Shown here in pieces: positions 3,878 to 35,917 of a stretch of DNA of 36,310 nt (the stretch's first letter is position 1; the number at the start of each line of letters is the position of its first letter). A model generated the notes under the pieces. That model saw only the letters and a list, made by a program, of their open reading frames with translations. It did not search any database and was not told the DNA's origin. Location: the IMG/VR virus record IMGVR_UViG_3300042273_000209. The stretch is one strand, 5' to 3'. A program made the translations under genes and the position numbers. Source of the stretch: a virus.

Positions 3878-4486
3878 ATGGAAAAAAACAATAGAAACCT
3901 AATCACGATCAATGCTGTTTTTGTAGTCAGTCTTATCATGGCTAATGTCGTGGCGTCGAAAATCGTTGACGTTTTTGGATTTGTAGTTCCCGCTGCCGTT
4001 GTTGCTTACGGGATCACCTTCCTTTGCACGGATGTTATTGGTGAGATTTGGGGGAAGGAAGAAGCAAACAAGACCGTCAAATTGGGGTTTGTTATGCAAA
4101 TCCTATCTCTATGCCTTATCATTTTGGCGATAATGCTTCCGCCGGCGGTTTTTGCTGTTGAAGAGGGAAAGTCTTTTAATTCAATACTGGGGCAATCTGG
4201 AAGGGTGGTAGTTGCTAGTCTTATCGCCTACTTGGTAGCTCAATTCAATGATGTTTATGTTTTCCACAAACTGAAAGGCGCTTGCAACGGAAGAGCAAAG
4301 TGGATTCGGAACAATGGAAGCACTATTTTAAGCCAGTTTTTCGACACTGCAATTTTCATTACTGTGGCGTTTTACGGAGTAGTCCCTGACCTTGGATGGA
4401 TGGTTATCAGTCAGTATGTTGTAAAGGTCGTGATAGCGCTCTGTGATACACCTTTATTCTACTTCTTTACACGTAAAAGTGTATGA
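3878..4486 (+). CDS. yhhQ: Queuosine precursor transporter, YhhQ/DUF165 family
   Basis: Multi-TM protein; VVASLIAYLVAQFNDVYVFHKLK and CTDVIGEIWG resemble E. coli YhhQ; AT-rich. Confidence 0.7.
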   Translation: MEKNNRNLITINAVFVVSLIMANVVASKIVDVFGFVVPAAVVAYGITFLCTDVIGEIWGKEEANKTVKLGFVMQILSLCLIILAIMLPPAVFAVEEGKSFNSILGQSGRVVVASLIAYLVAQFNDVYVFHKLKGACNGRAKWIRNNGSTILSQFFDTAIFITVAFYGVVPDLGWMVISQYVVKVVIALCDTPLFYFFTRKSV

Positions 4487-25509: not shown

Positions 25510-25540
25510 ATAAAAAAGAGGGGCCTTTCGGCCCCTCTCT
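25510..25540 (-). terminator. Rho-independent terminator ending the minus-strand block
   Basis: Minus strand reads gaggggcc-gaaa-ggcccctc then TTTTTT. Confidence 0.7.
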
Positions 25541-25677
25541 CTCGCGGTGAAAAACTTACACTCGTCCATGTGTCTTCCTCCTCCCTCTCTACCAGCATCT
25601 CCACCCTGGGGTGTGATGTTGCCGGGCTTGTAGGCGCACCGGCGGCCTATGTCCCCTTTGGGGCTCGCTTTCTGCCC

Positions 25678-25974
25678 CTACAAATGCGTATACAGCCCTG
25701 TTTCGGCTGCGAAGACTGCCTGGAGCTGGTCGAAGTAAATGCCTTCGACCGTCTCCTCCGTTTCGACGTCTCCCCACTTCCCCAGCTTGCAAAACCGGAG
25801 GTCGTAGACGTCGGCTGGGGTCAATGTGACCTCCAGGTAGTTATACCTTGCGGATCCCCTGAATTTAAATCGCAGGGAATCCCTTGTAGCCACAAGGTGT
25901 TTTGCACCAGTCATGGCGACAAACATGTTGCCGCCGAGCTGGTCCAGTATCGTCGTTGCTACGGTGGTGTCCAT
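25678..25974 (-). CDS. Hypothetical protein (minus-strand block gene a)
   Basis: GGGGGAGG RBS upstream; balanced composition unlike antisense frames. Confidence 0.6.
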   Translation of the reverse strand: MDTTVATTILDQLGGNMFVAMTGAKHLVATRDSLRFKFRGSARYNYLEVTLTPADVYDLRFCKLGKWGDVETEETVEGIYFDQLQAVFAAETGLYTHL

Positions 25975-26006
25975 TTTCGTCCTCCCCCTTGTTTTTTTAC
26001 CTGACG

Positions 26007-26059
26007 GGCCTCATCAGTGGCGGCGTCACCGCCAGACGCCCGCGAAGGGCGTTTCGGCC
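26007..26059 (-). ncRNA. Type II hammerhead ribozyme motif, copy 1
   Basis: Minus strand: ggcc-GAAA-stem III (cgccc/gggcg)-UC cleavage site-stem I (uggcgg/ccgcca)-CUGAUGA-ggcc; all core nucleotides present. Confidence 0.55.
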
Positions 26060-26089
26060 TAGGCTTCCTCCTCGTCGGGGATATAGTCG

Positions 26090-26127
26090 ACCTTTCGGTG
26101 AAGATGCCAGGGGCCCTTCGGCCCCTG
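26090..26127 (-). repeat. Intercistronic repeat element A (hairpin plus aucuucaccgaaaggu box)
   Basis: Same 16-nt box and flanking GC hairpin recur at 26466-26505. Confidence 0.5.
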
Positions 26128-26144
26128 CCCCCTGGCATTAAGTT

Positions 26145-26435
26145 CTACAGCTCGATGACGTCCGGTGCGTCGCGCAGGATTTTCATGTACCGCAGATGCT
26201 GGTACATGTACTGCGGACCCTGGTTGATCTCGACGACCTCGACCTGGCCGCCGAGGGGTGTGGTGTGCAGAGTGACAACCTCTTCGATGCCCTCGCTGAC
26301 CTCCTCGCGGCTTGCCTCGGCCTCCTCGGTGCCCTCGGGCAGGGCGATGGCGATCCCGTCCTCGTCGCTGCCGGGGTACGTCTCCCAGAACTCCATGTGG
26401 CCCGGAATACGGGAACTCTCGATCCAAAATCCCAT
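26145..26435 (-). CDS. Hypothetical acidic protein (gene b)
   Basis: AAGGAGGG RBS upstream. Confidence 0.6.
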   Translation of the reverse strand: MGFWIESSRIPGHMEFWETYPGSDEDGIAIALPEGTEEAEASREEVSEGIEEVVTLHTTPLGGQVEVVEINQGPQYMYQHLRYMKILRDAPDVIEL

Positions 26436-26465
26436 GGCGATCCCTCCTTTTAGGGGCTATATGCA

Positions 26466-26505
26466 ACCTTTCGGTGAAGATAGTAGGGGCCCGAAGGGCT
26501 CCCGC
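26466..26505 (-). repeat. Intercistronic repeat element B (copy of box plus hairpin)
   Basis: Box identical to copy A; hairpin loop inverted with stem preserved. Confidence 0.5.
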
Positions 26506-26506
26506 G

Positions 26507-27064
26507 CTACGCGTCATCTCCCTTTTTCGCGATCGCCTCACGGGCGTTGTGGATGCCCGTGAGGACGCACGTGTACTCTTCTTTCAGGGCGGCGAGCGCC
26601 ACCCGTTTCCAGGCGGCGAGGGCCTCCTCTGGCGTCGGCGCGCGCCCAATCTCGCACCGACTCTTCATCCAGGAGGTCAGCCGATCGAACTGGCTTAGGC
26701 CCTCGACGCTGAACTCACAAACGTCACGGTATCTGTCGCTGAAACCGTGACGCAGCGTCACCAACCCCTGATGCCTCCCCTGGGCGGGGGAGATATACAG
26801 GTCCTCGACGCCGATGCCGTTGAACACGTCGAGGAAGAATTGCAAGGTGGACTCGATCTCAGACGCGGCGGCGAGTGCCGCCTCCGGGTGGGCGGCTGCC
26901 ATGGCCCGTGTGACCTCGGGGCCATATCCGCGATGCCCCGCCTCCCGGAACACGGCGTACCACCCCGCCGTGCCGTGGGGCGGCGTCGTCGTATCGTGCT
27001 GCTCCACCCCTCCGGAGAAAAAATCATCTCCGTGGGGCATGGGCCCCTCAGTGAACCACGACAT
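26507..27064 (-). CDS. Hypothetical protein (gene c)
   Basis: GAAGGAGGA RBS; protein-like composition. Confidence 0.6.
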   Translation of the reverse strand: MSWFTEGPMPHGDDFFSGGVEQHDTTTPPHGTAGWYAVFREAGHRGYGPEVTRAMAAAHPEAALAAASEIESTLQFFLDVFNGIGVEDLYISPAQGRHQGLVTLRHGFSDRYRDVCEFSVEGLSQFDRLTSWMKSRCEIGRAPTPEEALAAWKRVALAALKEEYTCVLTGIHNAREAIAKKGDDA

Positions 27065-27113
27065 CTTTTTCCTCCTTCCCCCGCCCGTGCGGGAATCAAC
27101 GGGGCCTGTGCCC

Positions 27114-27167
27114 CGGCCTCATCAGTGGCGGCTCTACCGCCAGACGCCCCTTGCGGGGCGTTTCGGC
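27114..27167 (-). ncRNA. Type II hammerhead ribozyme motif, copy 2
   Basis: Same architecture as copy 1; stem III closed by GCAA tetraloop, stem I loop differs; CUGAUGAG and GAAA cores intact. Confidence 0.55.
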
Positions 27168-27551
27168 CTAGGCGTCGTCGACGTCGTCGACGTCCTGCAG
27201 GGCCTCGAGGTGCTCCGCGATGAACTCGCGGAGTAGACGCCGTTTTTCCCTCATCGAGTCGGCCAGCTCGTAGTCTGCCGACTCGCTGACGGGGAGGGGG
27301 TACTCGCTGTACCCCATCCCCTTGCAGATGGCCCGCTCGACCATCTGCAGGAGCTTAAGGTCATACTGCCCCACGGGTTCGCCGTCGTACATCGCGAACC
27401 CGTGGACTAGTGCGTCTTGGACGCTGCGCCCCCACTGGCCAATCGTGCCAGCAGAGGCAAAAAACCCCACGTGGACACTGCTACCGCGCCGGGTGACGCG
27501 GTAGAGATCCCCGCGCCGGATCGGGTCGTGGTGCAATGAGAACCTTTTCAT
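27168..27551 (-). CDS. Hypothetical protein (gene d)
   Basis: GAAGGAGGA RBS before internal ATG; 5' UTR paralogous to that of gene c. Confidence 0.55.
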   Translation of the reverse strand: MKRFSLHHDPIRRGDLYRVTRRGSSVHVGFFASAGTIGQWGRSVQDALVHGFAMYDGEPVGQYDLKLLQMVERAICKGMGYSEYPLPVSESADYELADSMREKRRLLREFIAEHLEALQDVDDVDDA

Positions 27552-27622
27552 TCTGTCCTCCTTCCCCCGCCCCGTGGCGGGAGCACTGTCCCCCCTTGCG
27601 CCCTGTGGCGCAGGAGGGAGGG

Positions 27623-29323: not shown

Positions 29324-29352
29324 ATTATATATGCCGTTGGGCAGTTGTGCAA
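29324..29352 (-). promoter_or_regulatory. Sigma70-like promoter for the minus-strand block (TTGCAC-17-TATAAT)
   Basis: Near-consensus -35 and -10 with 17-nt spacer on the minus strand. Confidence 0.55.
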
Positions 29353-29382
29353 TAGGCCTATAGGACCATCTTGCACAACTGC
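29341..29382. promoter_or_regulatory. Candidate operator: 12-bp perfect inverted repeat GCAGTTGTGCAA-N18-TTGCACAACTGC
   Basis: Perfect 12-bp arms; left arm overlaps the minus-strand -35. Confidence 0.55.
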
Positions 29383-29402
29383 ATCTGGTACTTTTCGCCT
29401 AC

Positions 29403-29431
29403 TTGCGTTATAGTGATATCTGTGGTATTGT
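29403..29431 (+). promoter_or_regulatory. Sigma70-like promoter for the RHH gene (TTGCGT-17-TATTGT)
   Basis: Hexamers about 40 nt upstream of ATG 29469. Confidence 0.4.
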
Positions 29432-31881: not shown

Positions 31882-32796
31882 ATGGCACAGGACAGAGCAA
31901 TCGCGCTCAAGAAGAACATGGAAAATCTCAAGGGGATGCTCCAGAAGGCCCTGCCAAGGCTCCAGGAAGTGGCGGCCTCAAGCATCGACCCTAAGCGCAT
32001 GATCCGATTGGTCGCTGCGGCGGCAAACCGAAATCCGAAGCTCCTGGAATGCACGCCACTTTCGGTGGTGTCGAGCCTGATGACCTCGGCTCAACTGGGG
32101 CTTGAGCCGGTCGGGCCTTTGGGGCAGGCCTACCTGGTCCCCTACTGGAACTCGCAAGCGAGGGTCAATGAGGCTCAGCTCCAGATCGGGTATCGGGGAC
32201 TGATCGAGCTGGCCCGCCGGTCAGGGGCTATTTCCTCTCTGGAGGCTCATGTTGTCTATGAGAGGGATGCCTTCGAGCTTGTCTATGGCTTGGCATCGGA
32301 CATCGTGCACAAGCCCTGTTTGGACGGAGATCCCGGCCAGCTGCGGGCTGTTTACGCTGTGGCTCGCTTCAAGGACGGTTCGGTGCAGTTCGAGGTCATG
32401 ACGCGGGCTCAGGTGGAAACGATCAAGGCCCGTTCTCAGAACGGGAAAAACAGCAAGGGCCCCTGGGCAACTGATTATGACGAGATGGCCAGGAAGACCG
32501 TGGTGAAACGGCTCTGCAAGTATCTCCCGCTGTCCGTGGAGATGGCCGATGCCATTCAGATAGACAATGCAACCGAGGAGGGGCGGATCCCGGATAGCTT
32601 CCTCGAGGCCGAGATCTCGGAGATTGGCGAAACGCCCCCTAACGACGCCTCGTTCCTGAACGAGCCGGAGGGCTCGAAGGAACGGTGGGGGAAAGACGAG
32701 ACGGCAAGGCCTGCGGGGGAGGAACAGGAGCAGCTTTCCGACTTCGCCTTCCTGCCCGAGGCCGAGGCCGAGCGCGAGCCCGGCGAAGAAGGCTAG
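31882..32796 (+). CDS. recT: RecT-family single-strand annealing recombinase
   Basis: GLEPVGPLGQAYLVPY and PWATDYDEMARKTVVKRLCKYLPLS motifs. Confidence 0.85.
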   Translation: MAQDRAIALKKNMENLKGMLQKALPRLQEVAASSIDPKRMIRLVAAAANRNPKLLECTPLSVVSSLMTSAQLGLEPVGPLGQAYLVPYWNSQARVNEAQLQIGYRGLIELARRSGAISSLEAHVVYERDAFELVYGLASDIVHKPCLDGDPGQLRAVYAVARFKDGSVQFEVMTRAQVETIKARSQNGKNSKGPWATDYDEMARKTVVKRLCKYLPLSVEMADAIQIDNATEEGRIPDSFLEAEISEIGETPPNDASFLNEPEGSKERWGKDETARPAGEEQEQLSDFAFLPEAEAEREPGEEG

Positions 32797-33360: not shown

Positions 33361-34410
33361 ATGACCGGTGACTATCGCATTAAAATAGGCTTCTTCCGGC
33401 ATCACAAGACCAAGCGCCTCAAAAAGAAAGGCGGAGCTGATGCCGTCGTTGCCCTGCTTCAGCTTTGGGAATGGGCAGCGGAGCAAAGGCCCGACGGAGA
33501 CCTGCGCGGCCTGTCCGCTGAGGACATCGACATCGTCGTCGATTGGGACTCAAACATGCCGTTGGCCACACTCCTCTCCGAGGCGGGATTCCTGGATGGT
33601 GACGAGGGAGAGTATCGGTTGCACGACTGGGCCGACCACAATCCCTGGGTAGCCGAATCGGCGCGGAGGAGCGACGCCGCCAGGCTGTCGCGGCTGGCCC
33701 GCGAGAACCCCGAGGCGGCCTCGGCCCTGCGAGACGAGGGGCGTATTGGCATCACCGAAGAAGAGTATCGCGCGCTAAAGCTCGGCACGAATAACGAGCG
33801 TGACACAAACATGAAACAACCGAACAACGACCGTAGTACGACCGTAGTACGACCGTCAACGCTTCGTTCTACTCCTGCTCCTGCTCCTGCTCCTGCTCTT
33901 GATCCTGCTCTTGATCCTGCTCTTGATCCTGAACCAAAAGACAAGGGTCAAAAGCAAAAGACGTCGCCTGGGCTATCGCCGGCGACCCCTTCGGCGGCCC
34001 CACCACCCCTGATCCAGCCGGAGGATATCCCCTACCAGGCCATCGTGGATGTCTATCACGAGGTGCTGCCGGAGCTCCCCAGGGTCCGCATACTAACCGA
34101 TGCACGCCGAAAGGCGATTCGCAGCCGGCTGAGATCAGATGCCGACCGGCGCGATCTGGAGTGGTGGAGGCGCTATTTCCTGGCAGTTCGACCGTGCCGC
34201 TTTCTCTTCGGCGCGAATAACCGCAACTGGACGGCCTCGTTCGATTTCCTGCTAAGCCAGAAGGGCATGGCCGGAGTCCTCGAAGGCAAGTACGCGGACA
34301 GAAAAGGCGCGACCGCGACGCCGTCCGGTTCCATCGCTGCCTACGTTGACGCGATGTTCCCGGACGAACCGGATGTGCTCGATGCGGAGGTGATTGGCGG
34401 TGACGGATAG
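33361..34410 (+). CDS. Putative replication initiation / organizer protein with internal tandem-repeat linker
   Basis: Position in replication module; conserved C-terminal segment WTASFDFLLSQKGMAGVLEGKY. Confidence 0.45.
   Translation: MTGDYRIKIGFFRHHKTKRLKKKGGADAVVALLQLWEWAAEQRPDGDLRGLSAEDIDIVVDWDSNMPLATLLSEAGFLDGDEGEYRLHDWADHNPWVAESARRSDAARLSRLARENPEAASALRDEGRIGITEEEYRALKLGTNNERDTNMKQPNNDRSTTVVRPSTLRSTPAPAPAPALDPALDPALDPEPKDKGQKQKTSPGLSPATPSAAPPPLIQPEDIPYQAIVDVYHEVLPELPRVRILTDARRKAIRSRLRSDADRRDLEWWRRYFLAVRPCRFLFGANNRNWTASFDFLLSQKGMAGVLEGKYADRKGATATPSGSIAAYVDAMFPDEPDVLDAEVIGGDG
33830..33930 (+). repeat. Cluster of short tandem repeats (candidate origin iterons)
   Basis: ccgtagtacga x2.5, cctgct x4, cttgatcctgct x3 in direct succession. 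Confidence 0.6.
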
Positions 34411-35463: not shown

Positions 35464-35642
35464 AACTAGCCGAACGACCGGAATCGGAGCTGCTTGCCAA
35501 ACGGAAAGAGCTTGAACATGAGGCCGAGCGATCCCCGCTCAAGGCCGTGAAAACCCGGAACAAACGCTGGATCGCGCAGATTGACGCCGAGCTGGCGCGG
35601 CGCGCCGAAGAATTGGAGCGAGCGCAGGGGAGGGTGCTCTGA
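35460..35642 (+). CDS. Hypothetical coiled-coil protein (60 aa)
   Basis: ATGA coupling. Confidence 0.4.
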   Translation: MKLAERPESELLAKRKELEHEAERSPLKAVKTRNKRWIAQIDAELARRAEELERAQGRVL

Positions 35643-35917
35643 TGGCCGTTCCGGCGATGGAGCAGTCGATACTGTCCAGGGATGCCCAGCTGGCCCGGTG
35701 GCAGAGGCTGACTCCCAGCGAGAGAGACACGGGAATGCTCCTGGTCGGCGGCCTTTCTCCCCTGGAGATTGCGGCAAGGACGGGAGTGTCGAAGGCCCTG
35801 GCGCAGCATCGGGTTCGGCAGGCGAGGTGGGCGATGGGGCTGAGGGGGGCGACGATGGAGAGGACGCGGGACGAGCTCCGGGCGTTCCTGGCAGAGGCGG
35901 AGGAGTGGATAGAGTGA
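35642..35917 (+). CDS. Small HTH regulator (sigma region 4 / LuxR-like), candidate late-gene activator
   Basis: LTPSERDTGMLLVGGLSPLEIAARTGVSKALAQHRV; sits just upstream of the packaging/structural genes on the circle. Confidence 0.5.
   Translation: MAVPAMEQSILSRDAQLARWQRLTPSERDTGMLLVGGLSPLEIAARTGVSKALAQHRVRQARWAMGLRGATMERTRDELRAFLAEAEEWIE

Follow-up and report, generated by a model that had tools for sequence, protein, structure and literature searches.

The minus strand of one tailed-phage genome carries a run of small genes, two of which, b and c, are each followed by the same short box and a G+C-rich hairpin, raising the question of what a signal repeated between such genes does. We addressed this question in IMG/VR virus record IMGVR_UViG_3300042273_000209, taking the whole 36,310-nt stretch (hereafter the window; 36.3 kb, 58.6% G+C) as the unit of analysis. 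A first-pass annotation had described the box, the hairpins and nearby hammerhead ribozymes, and had proposed that together they form a set of RNA processing or attenuation signals dividing up the minus-strand message. We find that the box belongs to a 27-bp two-block motif, a real, conserved and previously undescribed cis-element that also occurs in the defence island of a Synergistaceae bacterium, and that may mark the point at which one transcription unit ends and another begins.

A two-block motif in two gene junctions

The 16-nt box reported after the stops of genes b and c is there: the window holds two exact copies of ATCTTCACCGAAAGGT, both on the minus strand (26481-26466 and 26105-26090), and no further one even at 3 mismatches. 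The full repeat is longer than 16 nt, extending over 50 nt at 80% identity (plus-strand positions 26443-26492 and 26067-26116, with a spacing of 376 nt) and running from the 3′ arm of the hairpin (GGGCCCCT) through TATA(G/T)CCCC. The extended pattern TTCACCGAAAG-N6-TATAT reached two or more matches in 0 of 100 shuffles. Within the repeat, motif copy A (26453-26479, minus strand) reads CTTCACCGAAAG-GTTGCA-TATAG-CCCC and has the ATG of gene c 17 nt downstream of it; copy B (26077-26103, minus strand) reads CTTCACCGAAAG-GTCGAC-TATAT-CCCC and lies 17 nt upstream of the second of two hammerheads, HH2. These are the only copies in the window at a weight-matrix score of at least 12 bits or at up to 3 mismatches.

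Fifteen distinct instances, drawn from the window, from related metagenomic phage contigs and from two Synergistales metagenome-assembled genomes (MAGs), define the motif as CTTCACYGAAAG-N6-TATAT(C)CCC. Fourteen of them form an ungapped alignment (A1), and the fifteenth comes from locus L117. Block 1, CTTCAC(C/T)GAAAG, is invariant or nearly so, and the spacer between the blocks has a constant length of 6 nt and a free sequence. Block 2 consists of TATAT, which is likewise constant or almost so, followed by C(C)CC and usually then by TGAAR or TAAAA, an A+T-rich stretch in DNA of 59% G+C. In all 15 instances the motif points in the direction of the next gene, from a distance of 20-135 nt. The interval up to the start codon has no common content: depending on the instance, it is empty or holds a hammerhead, hairpins or a 130-nt leader.

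The motif in related phages and in a bacterial defence island

Database searches with the exact 16-mer returned 18 loci in IMG/VR, of which only L007, from the same phage, was real; the rest were chance matches in unrelated low-G+C coding DNA. IMG/VR scans with the individual proteins of genes b, c and d led back to the same contig only, a metagenome contig scan and two relaxed IMG/VR scans gave chance matches only, and a distant blastn search of the INPHARED phage collection with the window found no relative. Related phage fragments were gathered via homologues of proteins b, c and d and the contigs that carry them. Scanning one genome per prokaryotic species with the pattern gave 16 matches, where our own arithmetic puts the chance expectation at about 10-30; three of the 16 carry the extended motif and are real, namely L032 and L043, on one Synergistaceae MAG contig, and L036, from a Synergistales MAG. 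A weight-matrix scan, which for the host covered 8-kb excerpts, added further copies in L032 and L026. No score fell between 12 and 36 bits, and this empty range indicates that the motif family is discrete.

The relatives of the phage, in which absence of the box had been named in advance as a refutation, gave a divided answer. The b-c junction measures 12 nt, with the stop codon abutting the Shine-Dalgarno sequence and no box, in L022, L026, L106 and L108-L110, and 71-77 nt, with the motif, in the window, L111, L028, L105 and L107. L026 carries the unit elsewhere, as a 58-nt insertion (motif plus one hairpin) between a hammerhead and gene b relative to the window and L022. The hairpin-motif unit thus behaves as a cassette, present or absent as an indel at the b-c junction and in the hammerhead-b interval; the alignments across these indels show no flanking duplications. 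In L111, the flanks are identical to those of the window and the spacer and block 2 are of the L105 type, a mixture that suggests exchange inside the motif.

The bacterial copies lie among antiviral systems. The Synergistaceae MAG contig (JAESII010000004.1) bears, besides the motif, a CRISPR array at L032:7069-8000, two spacers of which match the RecT gene of the window: spacer 6 with 34/34 identities (32467-32500) and spacer 7 with 32/33 (32279-32311). These matches imply that the phage infects this Synergistaceae lineage. A type II Zorya system (ZorA2, ZorB2, ZorE2; L032:2036-5001, minus strand) stands between the CRISPR array and cas1, and the same contig and its orthologue (L043 and L036) carry adjacent type III-B (cmr) and III-A (csm) modules. 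Here the motif heads one unit after another. At L043 and L036 it marks the cmr/csm boundary, between Cmr3-Cmr6 and a small open reading frame (ORF) followed by Cas10-Csm2-Csm3. One copy in L032 (L032a) stands ahead of a non-coding, strongly structured 180-nt unit, at whose end lies a canonical 13-bp U-tract terminator; 55 nt past this terminator comes a second (L032b), before ZorA2-ZorB2-ZorE2; a third (L032c), 35 nt short of orf153-cas1, overlaps the stop codon of ZorE.

Comparison of the orthologous L043 and L036 loci delimits the conserved element: the hairpin region has fully diverged and yet still folds, and a 29-nt stretch covering the motif is identical at 29/29 positions. By sequence comparison, then, this pair outlines the footprint of the motif. 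We found no protein common to the host loci and the phage, and the 27-bp motif is the only thing that the two have in common. The 180-nt unit (L032:5075-5255, minus strand) folds far better than its shuffles (z -5.8), has no plausible ORF and has no match in Rfam, which makes it a small-RNA candidate within the CRISPR/Zorya island. Two further ideas, mimicry of the host CRISPR repeat by the motif and targeting of the motif by this adjacent small RNA, were dropped, as neither similarity nor complementarity was seen.

A primary-sequence signal with hairpins as frequent neighbours

We looked for RNA structure in the motif at several levels. RNAalifold on the 14 aligned instances yielded 0 consensus pairs. 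The ACC-GAAA-GGU hairpin that can be drawn in the window is paired in 55% of alignment cells, with its middle pair formed in 3 of 14 sequences, and an alternative 5-bp stem is paired in 84% of cells against 82% in shuffles, its outer pairs broken in 6 of 14 and 4 of 14 sequences. Neither unit of the window folds better than its shuffles (z +0.1 and -1.1), and a search of 26060-26506 with Rfam 15, including hammerhead, twister, twister-sister, pistol, hatchet and RAGATH families, gave no match even at E<=10, the two hammerheads on either side being the only elements to score. Without conserved structure or Rfam match, the box is best taken as a primary-sequence signal, not a structured RNA.

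The G+C-rich hairpins reported beside both boxes likewise proved real, each folding after the stop of gene b or gene c. Hairpin A (26486-26503, minus strand; GGG(A)GCCC-UUC-GGGCCCC; -12.1 kcal/mol) begins 3 nt past the TAG of gene b, and hairpin B (26108-26127, minus strand; CAGGGGCC-GAAG-GGCCCCUG; -19.9 kcal/mol) begins 17 nt past that of gene c. In their G+C-rich context, their advantage over shuffles is modest (z -1.7 and -1.9, respectively). Both have the G+C-rich stem-loop of an intrinsic terminator and both lack its U tract, the tails reading UACUAUCUUC (A) and GCAUCUUCAC (B); a terminator scan that does list U-tract terminators elsewhere in the window calls neither.

The two loops are inverted on a kept stem, as first described: the centre is C-UUC-G in A and C-GAAG-G in B, which are reverse complements. 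The same kind of flip separates orthologous terminators downstream of gene c, with GGCC-TTTT-GGCC in L026 and L105 and GGCC-AAAA-GGCC in L028, L108 and L111. Seen in both the window and its relatives, loop inversion appears to be a recurrent mutation at the hairpins of this phage group, which argues that the stem alone matters; judged from these sequences, the flips look like recurrent hairpin-mediated small inversions.

Across the motif family the hairpin comes and goes. G/C-only hairpins with CUUCGG-type loops lie 5-7 nt before the box at both window copies and in L111, whose hairpin is identical to hairpin A, as well as in L026 and L117, the last two of which show a hairpin-box-hairpin layout. 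Perfect stems of 24 bp (L043) and 19 bp (L036) stand ahead of the box in the host. Ahead of the box in L105, L107 and both copies of L028, folding is weak and does not exceed that of shuffles, and at L032c, where box and upstream stop codon overlap, the hairpin is weak or absent. The hairpin is therefore a frequent but dispensable neighbour of the box and not a fixed part of it.

A putative junction between transcription units

The reading we favour, at about even confidence, is that the hairpin closes one transcription unit and that a non-canonical promoter-like element starts the next. The G+C-rich stem-loop would close the upstream gene as a weak terminator, a protective 3′ hairpin or both. 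The 27-bp motif would be a non-canonical promoter, or a promoter combined with the site of a dedicated factor, and a new transcript would start 6-8 nt downstream of TATAT. At copy A, with TATAGC as the -10 element, transcription would start around 26451-26448 and give gene c its own short-leader mRNA. At copy B, the start would fall around 26076-26072, about 15 nt before HH2; the ribozyme would then cut the leader off the copy B transcript and leave a defined 5′-OH mRNA for gene d, making copy B a natural arrangement resembling promoter, ribozyme insulator and ribosome-binding site. Initiation, its position and the roles of the hairpins we infer from what is observed, namely the motif with its conservation, orientation, positions, lack of RNA structure and presence in the CRISPR-linked host.

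Several features point to a start signal acting at the DNA level. All 15 instances lie upstream of a gene or operon start and in its orientation, as a promoter would. The succession of TATAT, CCC and purines has the layout of a melting element, a discriminator and a purine start. Two blocks separated by a spacer of fixed length and variable sequence, together with the positions at operon starts, fit a DNA-level start signal better than an RNA-level one, and a promoter-like signal would explain the co-orientation, the variable distance and content between motif and start codon, the occurrence just past a real terminator and ahead of an ORF-less unit, and the lack of RNA structure.

Other observations weigh against this reading, beginning with the geometry of the motif. 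As a sigma-70 -10 element, it has the wrong sixth position: in place of the expected T, most copies carry C and 2 carry A, with T in only 1. No TTGACA-like -35 element lies at 16-18 nt: the site 17 nt upstream of TATATC is unconserved and, with TATATC as the -10 element, the 17-nt spacer is taken up by the invariant block 1, whereas a direct reading of TTCACC as the -35 element leaves a spacer of 11 nt only. A sigma-70 consensus scan called neither window copy. Several close relatives express the same genes without the motif, and the 857-kb host contig contains the strict pattern only twice and about four motif copies in all. Such rarity implies that the motif is not a general host promoter but a rare, specific signal requiring a special factor. 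Because the sigma-70 geometry fails and the searches found no factor, our confidence goes no higher than about even.

Other signal classes were compared with the motif by eye. A sigma-54 promoter was rejected (no GG, and a GG-N10-GC spacing is impossible), and the spacings of extracytoplasmic function, sigma-32, sigma-28 and sigma-H promoters do not fit. The parS, dif/Xer and IHF consensus sequences resemble the motif weakly. A T7-like promoter is unlikely, with no phage RNA polymerase among the Pfam-annotated ORFs and pyrimidines after TATA. A literature search with the sequence returned only a eukaryotic retinoic-acid response element that shares TTCACCGAAAG by coincidence, and one on Synergistetes promoters found no paper.

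Alternative explanations

The main rival, which we consider unlikely, acts on RNA and is close to what was first proposed: a sequence-specific endoribonuclease would cut the polycistronic RNA in the single-stranded AUAUAU/box, the hairpin would protect the new 3′ end and, with the hammerheads, the message would be chopped into separately stable cistrons. A+U-rich single-stranded stretches beside G+C-rich hairpins are typical targets of RNases E and Y, a hairpin lies 3-12 nt upstream of the box in at least 8 of the 15 instances, and the element, always in the orientation of the transcript, sits among hammerheads, which act on RNA. However, known general RNase sites are far less specific than 12 + 8 invariant nucleotides with a fixed spacer, conserved RNA structure is lacking and several copies have no hairpin. 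Moreover, one host copy stands just past a U-tract terminator, where little upstream RNA is expected, and another heads a free-standing non-coding unit. What survives of the original proposal is a real, recurrent intergenic signal that subdivides the cluster beside two hammerheads, and whose box-hairpin combination is seen again in part of the related phages and in the genome of the host; the processing or attenuation role assigned to it is not favoured, given a box devoid of conserved structure or Rfam match and hairpins devoid of a U tract.

Rather improbable, in our estimate, is an operator or roadblock, in which a regulator bound at the motif would control or block transcription, the motif itself not being a promoter. 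An asymmetric, orientation-fixed motif near stop and start codons, forming a discrete family limited to one phage group and one host defence island, is what the regulon of a dedicated factor would look like. Yet the phage has two copies only, the absence of a protein common to host loci and phage leaves no candidate regulator, and a pure roadblock does not explain the TATAT-CCC-purine block or the positions at operon starts.

More specific, and improbable as it stands, is the idea that a dedicated transcription factor or sigma-like protein recognizes the motif and links the defence operons of the host with genes c and d of the phage. What keeps this link in consideration is that the motif alone is shared, that it is rare and confined to the defence island, and that spacers of that island target the phage. 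In this dedicated-factor scenario, the wired host units may comprise csm, the adaptation genes, type II Zorya and the adjacent small RNA. The phage could copy the start signal of the defence island so that possible counter-defence genes, such as the acidic gene c, are expressed alongside the defences, or the signal used by the island could be one that infection turns on.

Distinctly improbable is that the unit is a passenger with no regulatory role, either a crossover linker for modular exchange or a small mobile hairpin-box element such as a miniature inverted-repeat transposable element (MITE), a repetitive extragenic palindrome (REP) or an HUH substrate. Presence/absence polymorphism at identical junctions and the suggested crossover inside the L111 motif would suit it, and HUH-type mobile DNA is around, as seen in the hairpin-box-hairpin layouts of L026 and L117 and in the IS605 TnpA/TnpB genes by genes c and d in relatives. 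Against this, block 1 stays invariant while the spacer varies, a pattern that points to selection on the sequence rather than to common descent alone, and the host orthologues keep the motif at 29/29 beside a fully diverged hairpin. Nor do the units look like MITEs, REPs or HUH substrates: terminal inverted repeats, target duplications and flanking duplications are missing, copies are few, and the hairpins differ or are absent, those of phage and host being unrelated in sequence.

A new structured or self-cleaving RNA comes to mind in a hammerhead-rich neighbourhood, with a group I intron and a RAGATH-18 RNA in a relative (pistol, hatchet and twister-sister ribozymes were found through association with hammerheads), but is scarcely credible here, as Rfam gave nothing at E<=10, no consensus structure emerged, folding was like that of shuffles and the stems are broken in many instances.

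Hammerheads and the minus-strand gene cluster

The hammerheads noted beside the boxes are full-length type II matches (RF02276) with an intact CUGAUGA/GAAA/GUC core. HH1 (27108-27168, minus strand; 34 bits, E 1.4e-4) starts at the stop of gene a and lies upstream of gene b; HH2 (26002-26059, minus strand; 29 bits, E 0.0028) lies between motif copy B and gene d. Both score below the Rfam gathering score of 37 for this type; by sequence, the core, the closed stems I and III and the open stem II would place them in it. The 5′ flank of HH2, about 20 nt (..GACGAGGAGGAAGCCTAGGCC / ..GCCTAGGCC), duplicates the C-terminal coding end of gene a before HH1, a shared flank that suggests that the ribozyme was duplicated along with it.

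Hammerheads of this type, with scores just below gathering and intact cores, recur between the small genes of the phage group. L022 has them at 375-432, 1795-1853 and about 2566-2625, L026 has one at 10-67 and L116 has one at its start; the position homologous to HH1 is occupied in L022 and L026, and the L116 copy precedes gene d. Other elements of the relatives comprise a group I intron (63 bits), a RAGATH-18 RNA beside an IS605 TnpB gene and a complete IS200/IS605 insertion sequence (TnpA + TnpB), the last right beside genes c and d. These intron, RAGATH-18 and insertion-sequence elements lie at L026:2594-2918, L026:1146-1206, L026:1253-2443 and L116:489-2077, all on the minus strand.

The minus-strand cluster lies between the lysis genes, on which it converges, and the regulatory region. 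Its 5′ to 3′ order is terminator, a, HH1, b, hairpin A with box A, c, hairpin B with box B, HH2, d and a stem-loop with six U residues. The canonical terminator that precedes gene a (27649-27632, minus strand) comes from the terminator scan. Gene a (27168-27551, minus strand), the first of the cluster, encodes 127 amino acids (aa). Gene b (26507-27064, minus strand; 185 aa) has no family match and a G+C content by codon position of 0.65/0.49/0.81. Gene c (26145-26435, minus strand; 96 aa), flanked by a motif copy on either side, is very acidic and has a third-position G+C content of 0.85; Pfam, PHROGs and PADLOC gave no match for it, and its AlphaFold model, all-beta at a predicted local distance difference test score of 72, has no match in the Protein Data Bank at E<=0.001. 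Gene d (25678-25974, minus strand; 98 aa) belongs to phrog_9437, a family of unassigned function that is widespread in phages and prophages. Codon-position G+C backs genes a-d as coding; a 160-aa ORF spanning both boxes (26541-26059) has the wrong pattern and was rejected as a gene.

At the end of the cluster stands the stem-loop AGAGGGGCC-GAAA-GGCCCCUCU with its U6 tail (25511-25540, minus strand), which we read from the sequence and which is absent from the list of the terminator scan. It indicates that this cluster does use terminators with a U tract, a feature that hairpins A and B lack. In L022, a terminator homologous to it directly follows gene c.

Two further sequences in the intergenic regions of this phage group were seen. 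A short hairpin of the CCGCCACAGGGCGG type lies just 5′ of the Shine-Dalgarno sequences of genes a and b (window about 27563-27582 and about 27079-27093, minus strand) and at L022:about 2640-2660 and L026:about 140-160; kept in relatives, it may be a 5′-untranslated-region element. A second conserved intergenic sequence, GCCGCCGGTGCGCCT(A/C)CAAGCCCGGCAA(C/T)ATCACAC, occurs in three phages, ahead of different genes (window 25611-25647, minus strand; L028:about 345-385; L027:about 672-705). Its layout is loosely similar to that of the two-block motif (..AAG-N7-ATATC), and in L028 it directly follows a motif copy.

Elsewhere the window encodes the small and large terminase, portal, capsid, tape-measure-like and tail-tip proteins and a GH108 endolysin, as well as RecT, a PDDEXK nuclease, SSB and RusA. 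The sigma-70 scan called a canonical sigma-70-like promoter, TGCACA-16-TATAAT, at 29324-29351 on the minus strand; ordinary promoters are thus present too in this phage. With a site at about 29380-29415 on the plus strand, it appears to form a divergent control region beside a gene for a ParB-N-domain protein. Five to six tandem 12-nt repeats (CTGCTCCTGCTC...) lie at 33857-33928 (plus strand) within ORF 33361-34410. Three notable small proteins are encoded on the plus strand at 3878-4486, 1313-1552 and 35642-35917: one belongs to the Vut_1 family of transporters (E 4e-52), one matches the C-terminal end only of the anaerobic ribonucleotide reductase NrdD, and one, of 91 aa, has a weak match to sigma-70 region 4 (19.5 bits, below the cut-off).

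Relation to known systems and significance

The moron cassettes of temperate phages, a concept from HK97/HK022 comparative genomics, consist of a gene with its own promoter and terminator inserted between conserved genes. The present cluster resembles them in its small accessory genes, placed between lysis module and regulatory region, bounded by stem-loops and A+T-rich boxes and present or absent in collinear relatives; it differs in that the box is not sigma-70-like, the hairpins lack a U tract, the junction module itself is the indel and the box also occurs in a host defence island. Among mycobacteriophages, the stoperators of Cluster A and the start-associated sequences of Cluster K are short, asymmetric intergenic repeats of fixed orientation, found in 10-30 copies per genome. 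Our box shares with them its asymmetry, its place near stop and start codons, its alignment with transcription and its restriction to one phage group. Unlike those repeats, which are not known to be shared with the host chromosome, it also marks host operon starts, and the many copies per genome that characterize stoperators, to which the phage repressor binds, are lacking, with two in the window.

Another parallel is synthetic. In promoter-RiboJ-RBS insulators, a hammerhead-derived ribozyme after the promoter standardises the 5′ untranslated region, and copy B is ordered likewise: a promoter-like box, a hammerhead that begins 17 nt further on, then a Shine-Dalgarno sequence and gene d. In contrast to that design, copy B is natural and its promoter is putative, and in L026 the order is reversed, with the hammerhead ahead of the hairpin and box. 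In nature, an Agrobacterium tumefaciens prophage has three hammerheads around ardA (Perreault et al. 2011, PMC3088659). As in that region, type II hammerheads here lie between small genes of a polycistronic accessory region after the tail and lysis genes (PMC3088659). Unlike there, where only ribozymes were described (PMC3088659), a hairpin with a two-block box alternates with the hammerheads, and copy B stands directly upstream of one.

The box belongs to no Rfam family and to no sigma-70 hexamer class, and the hairpins are not intrinsic terminators. If the favoured reading is true, phages of the almost unstudied phylum Synergistota use an expression-unit module, a compact and portable 'stop here, start here' unit of about 55 nt that is deployed with hammerheads for small accessory genes, and its non-sigma-70 geometry would point to a new recognition factor. 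That the same signal heads CRISPR-Cas and Zorya operons in the host that targets the phage would then offer a testable link between the expression of phage accessory genes and the control of the host defence island. Should RNA instead be cleaved at the motif, the sequence specificity of such a site would be unusual, and either way its two copies define precise positions at which to look for transcript ends.

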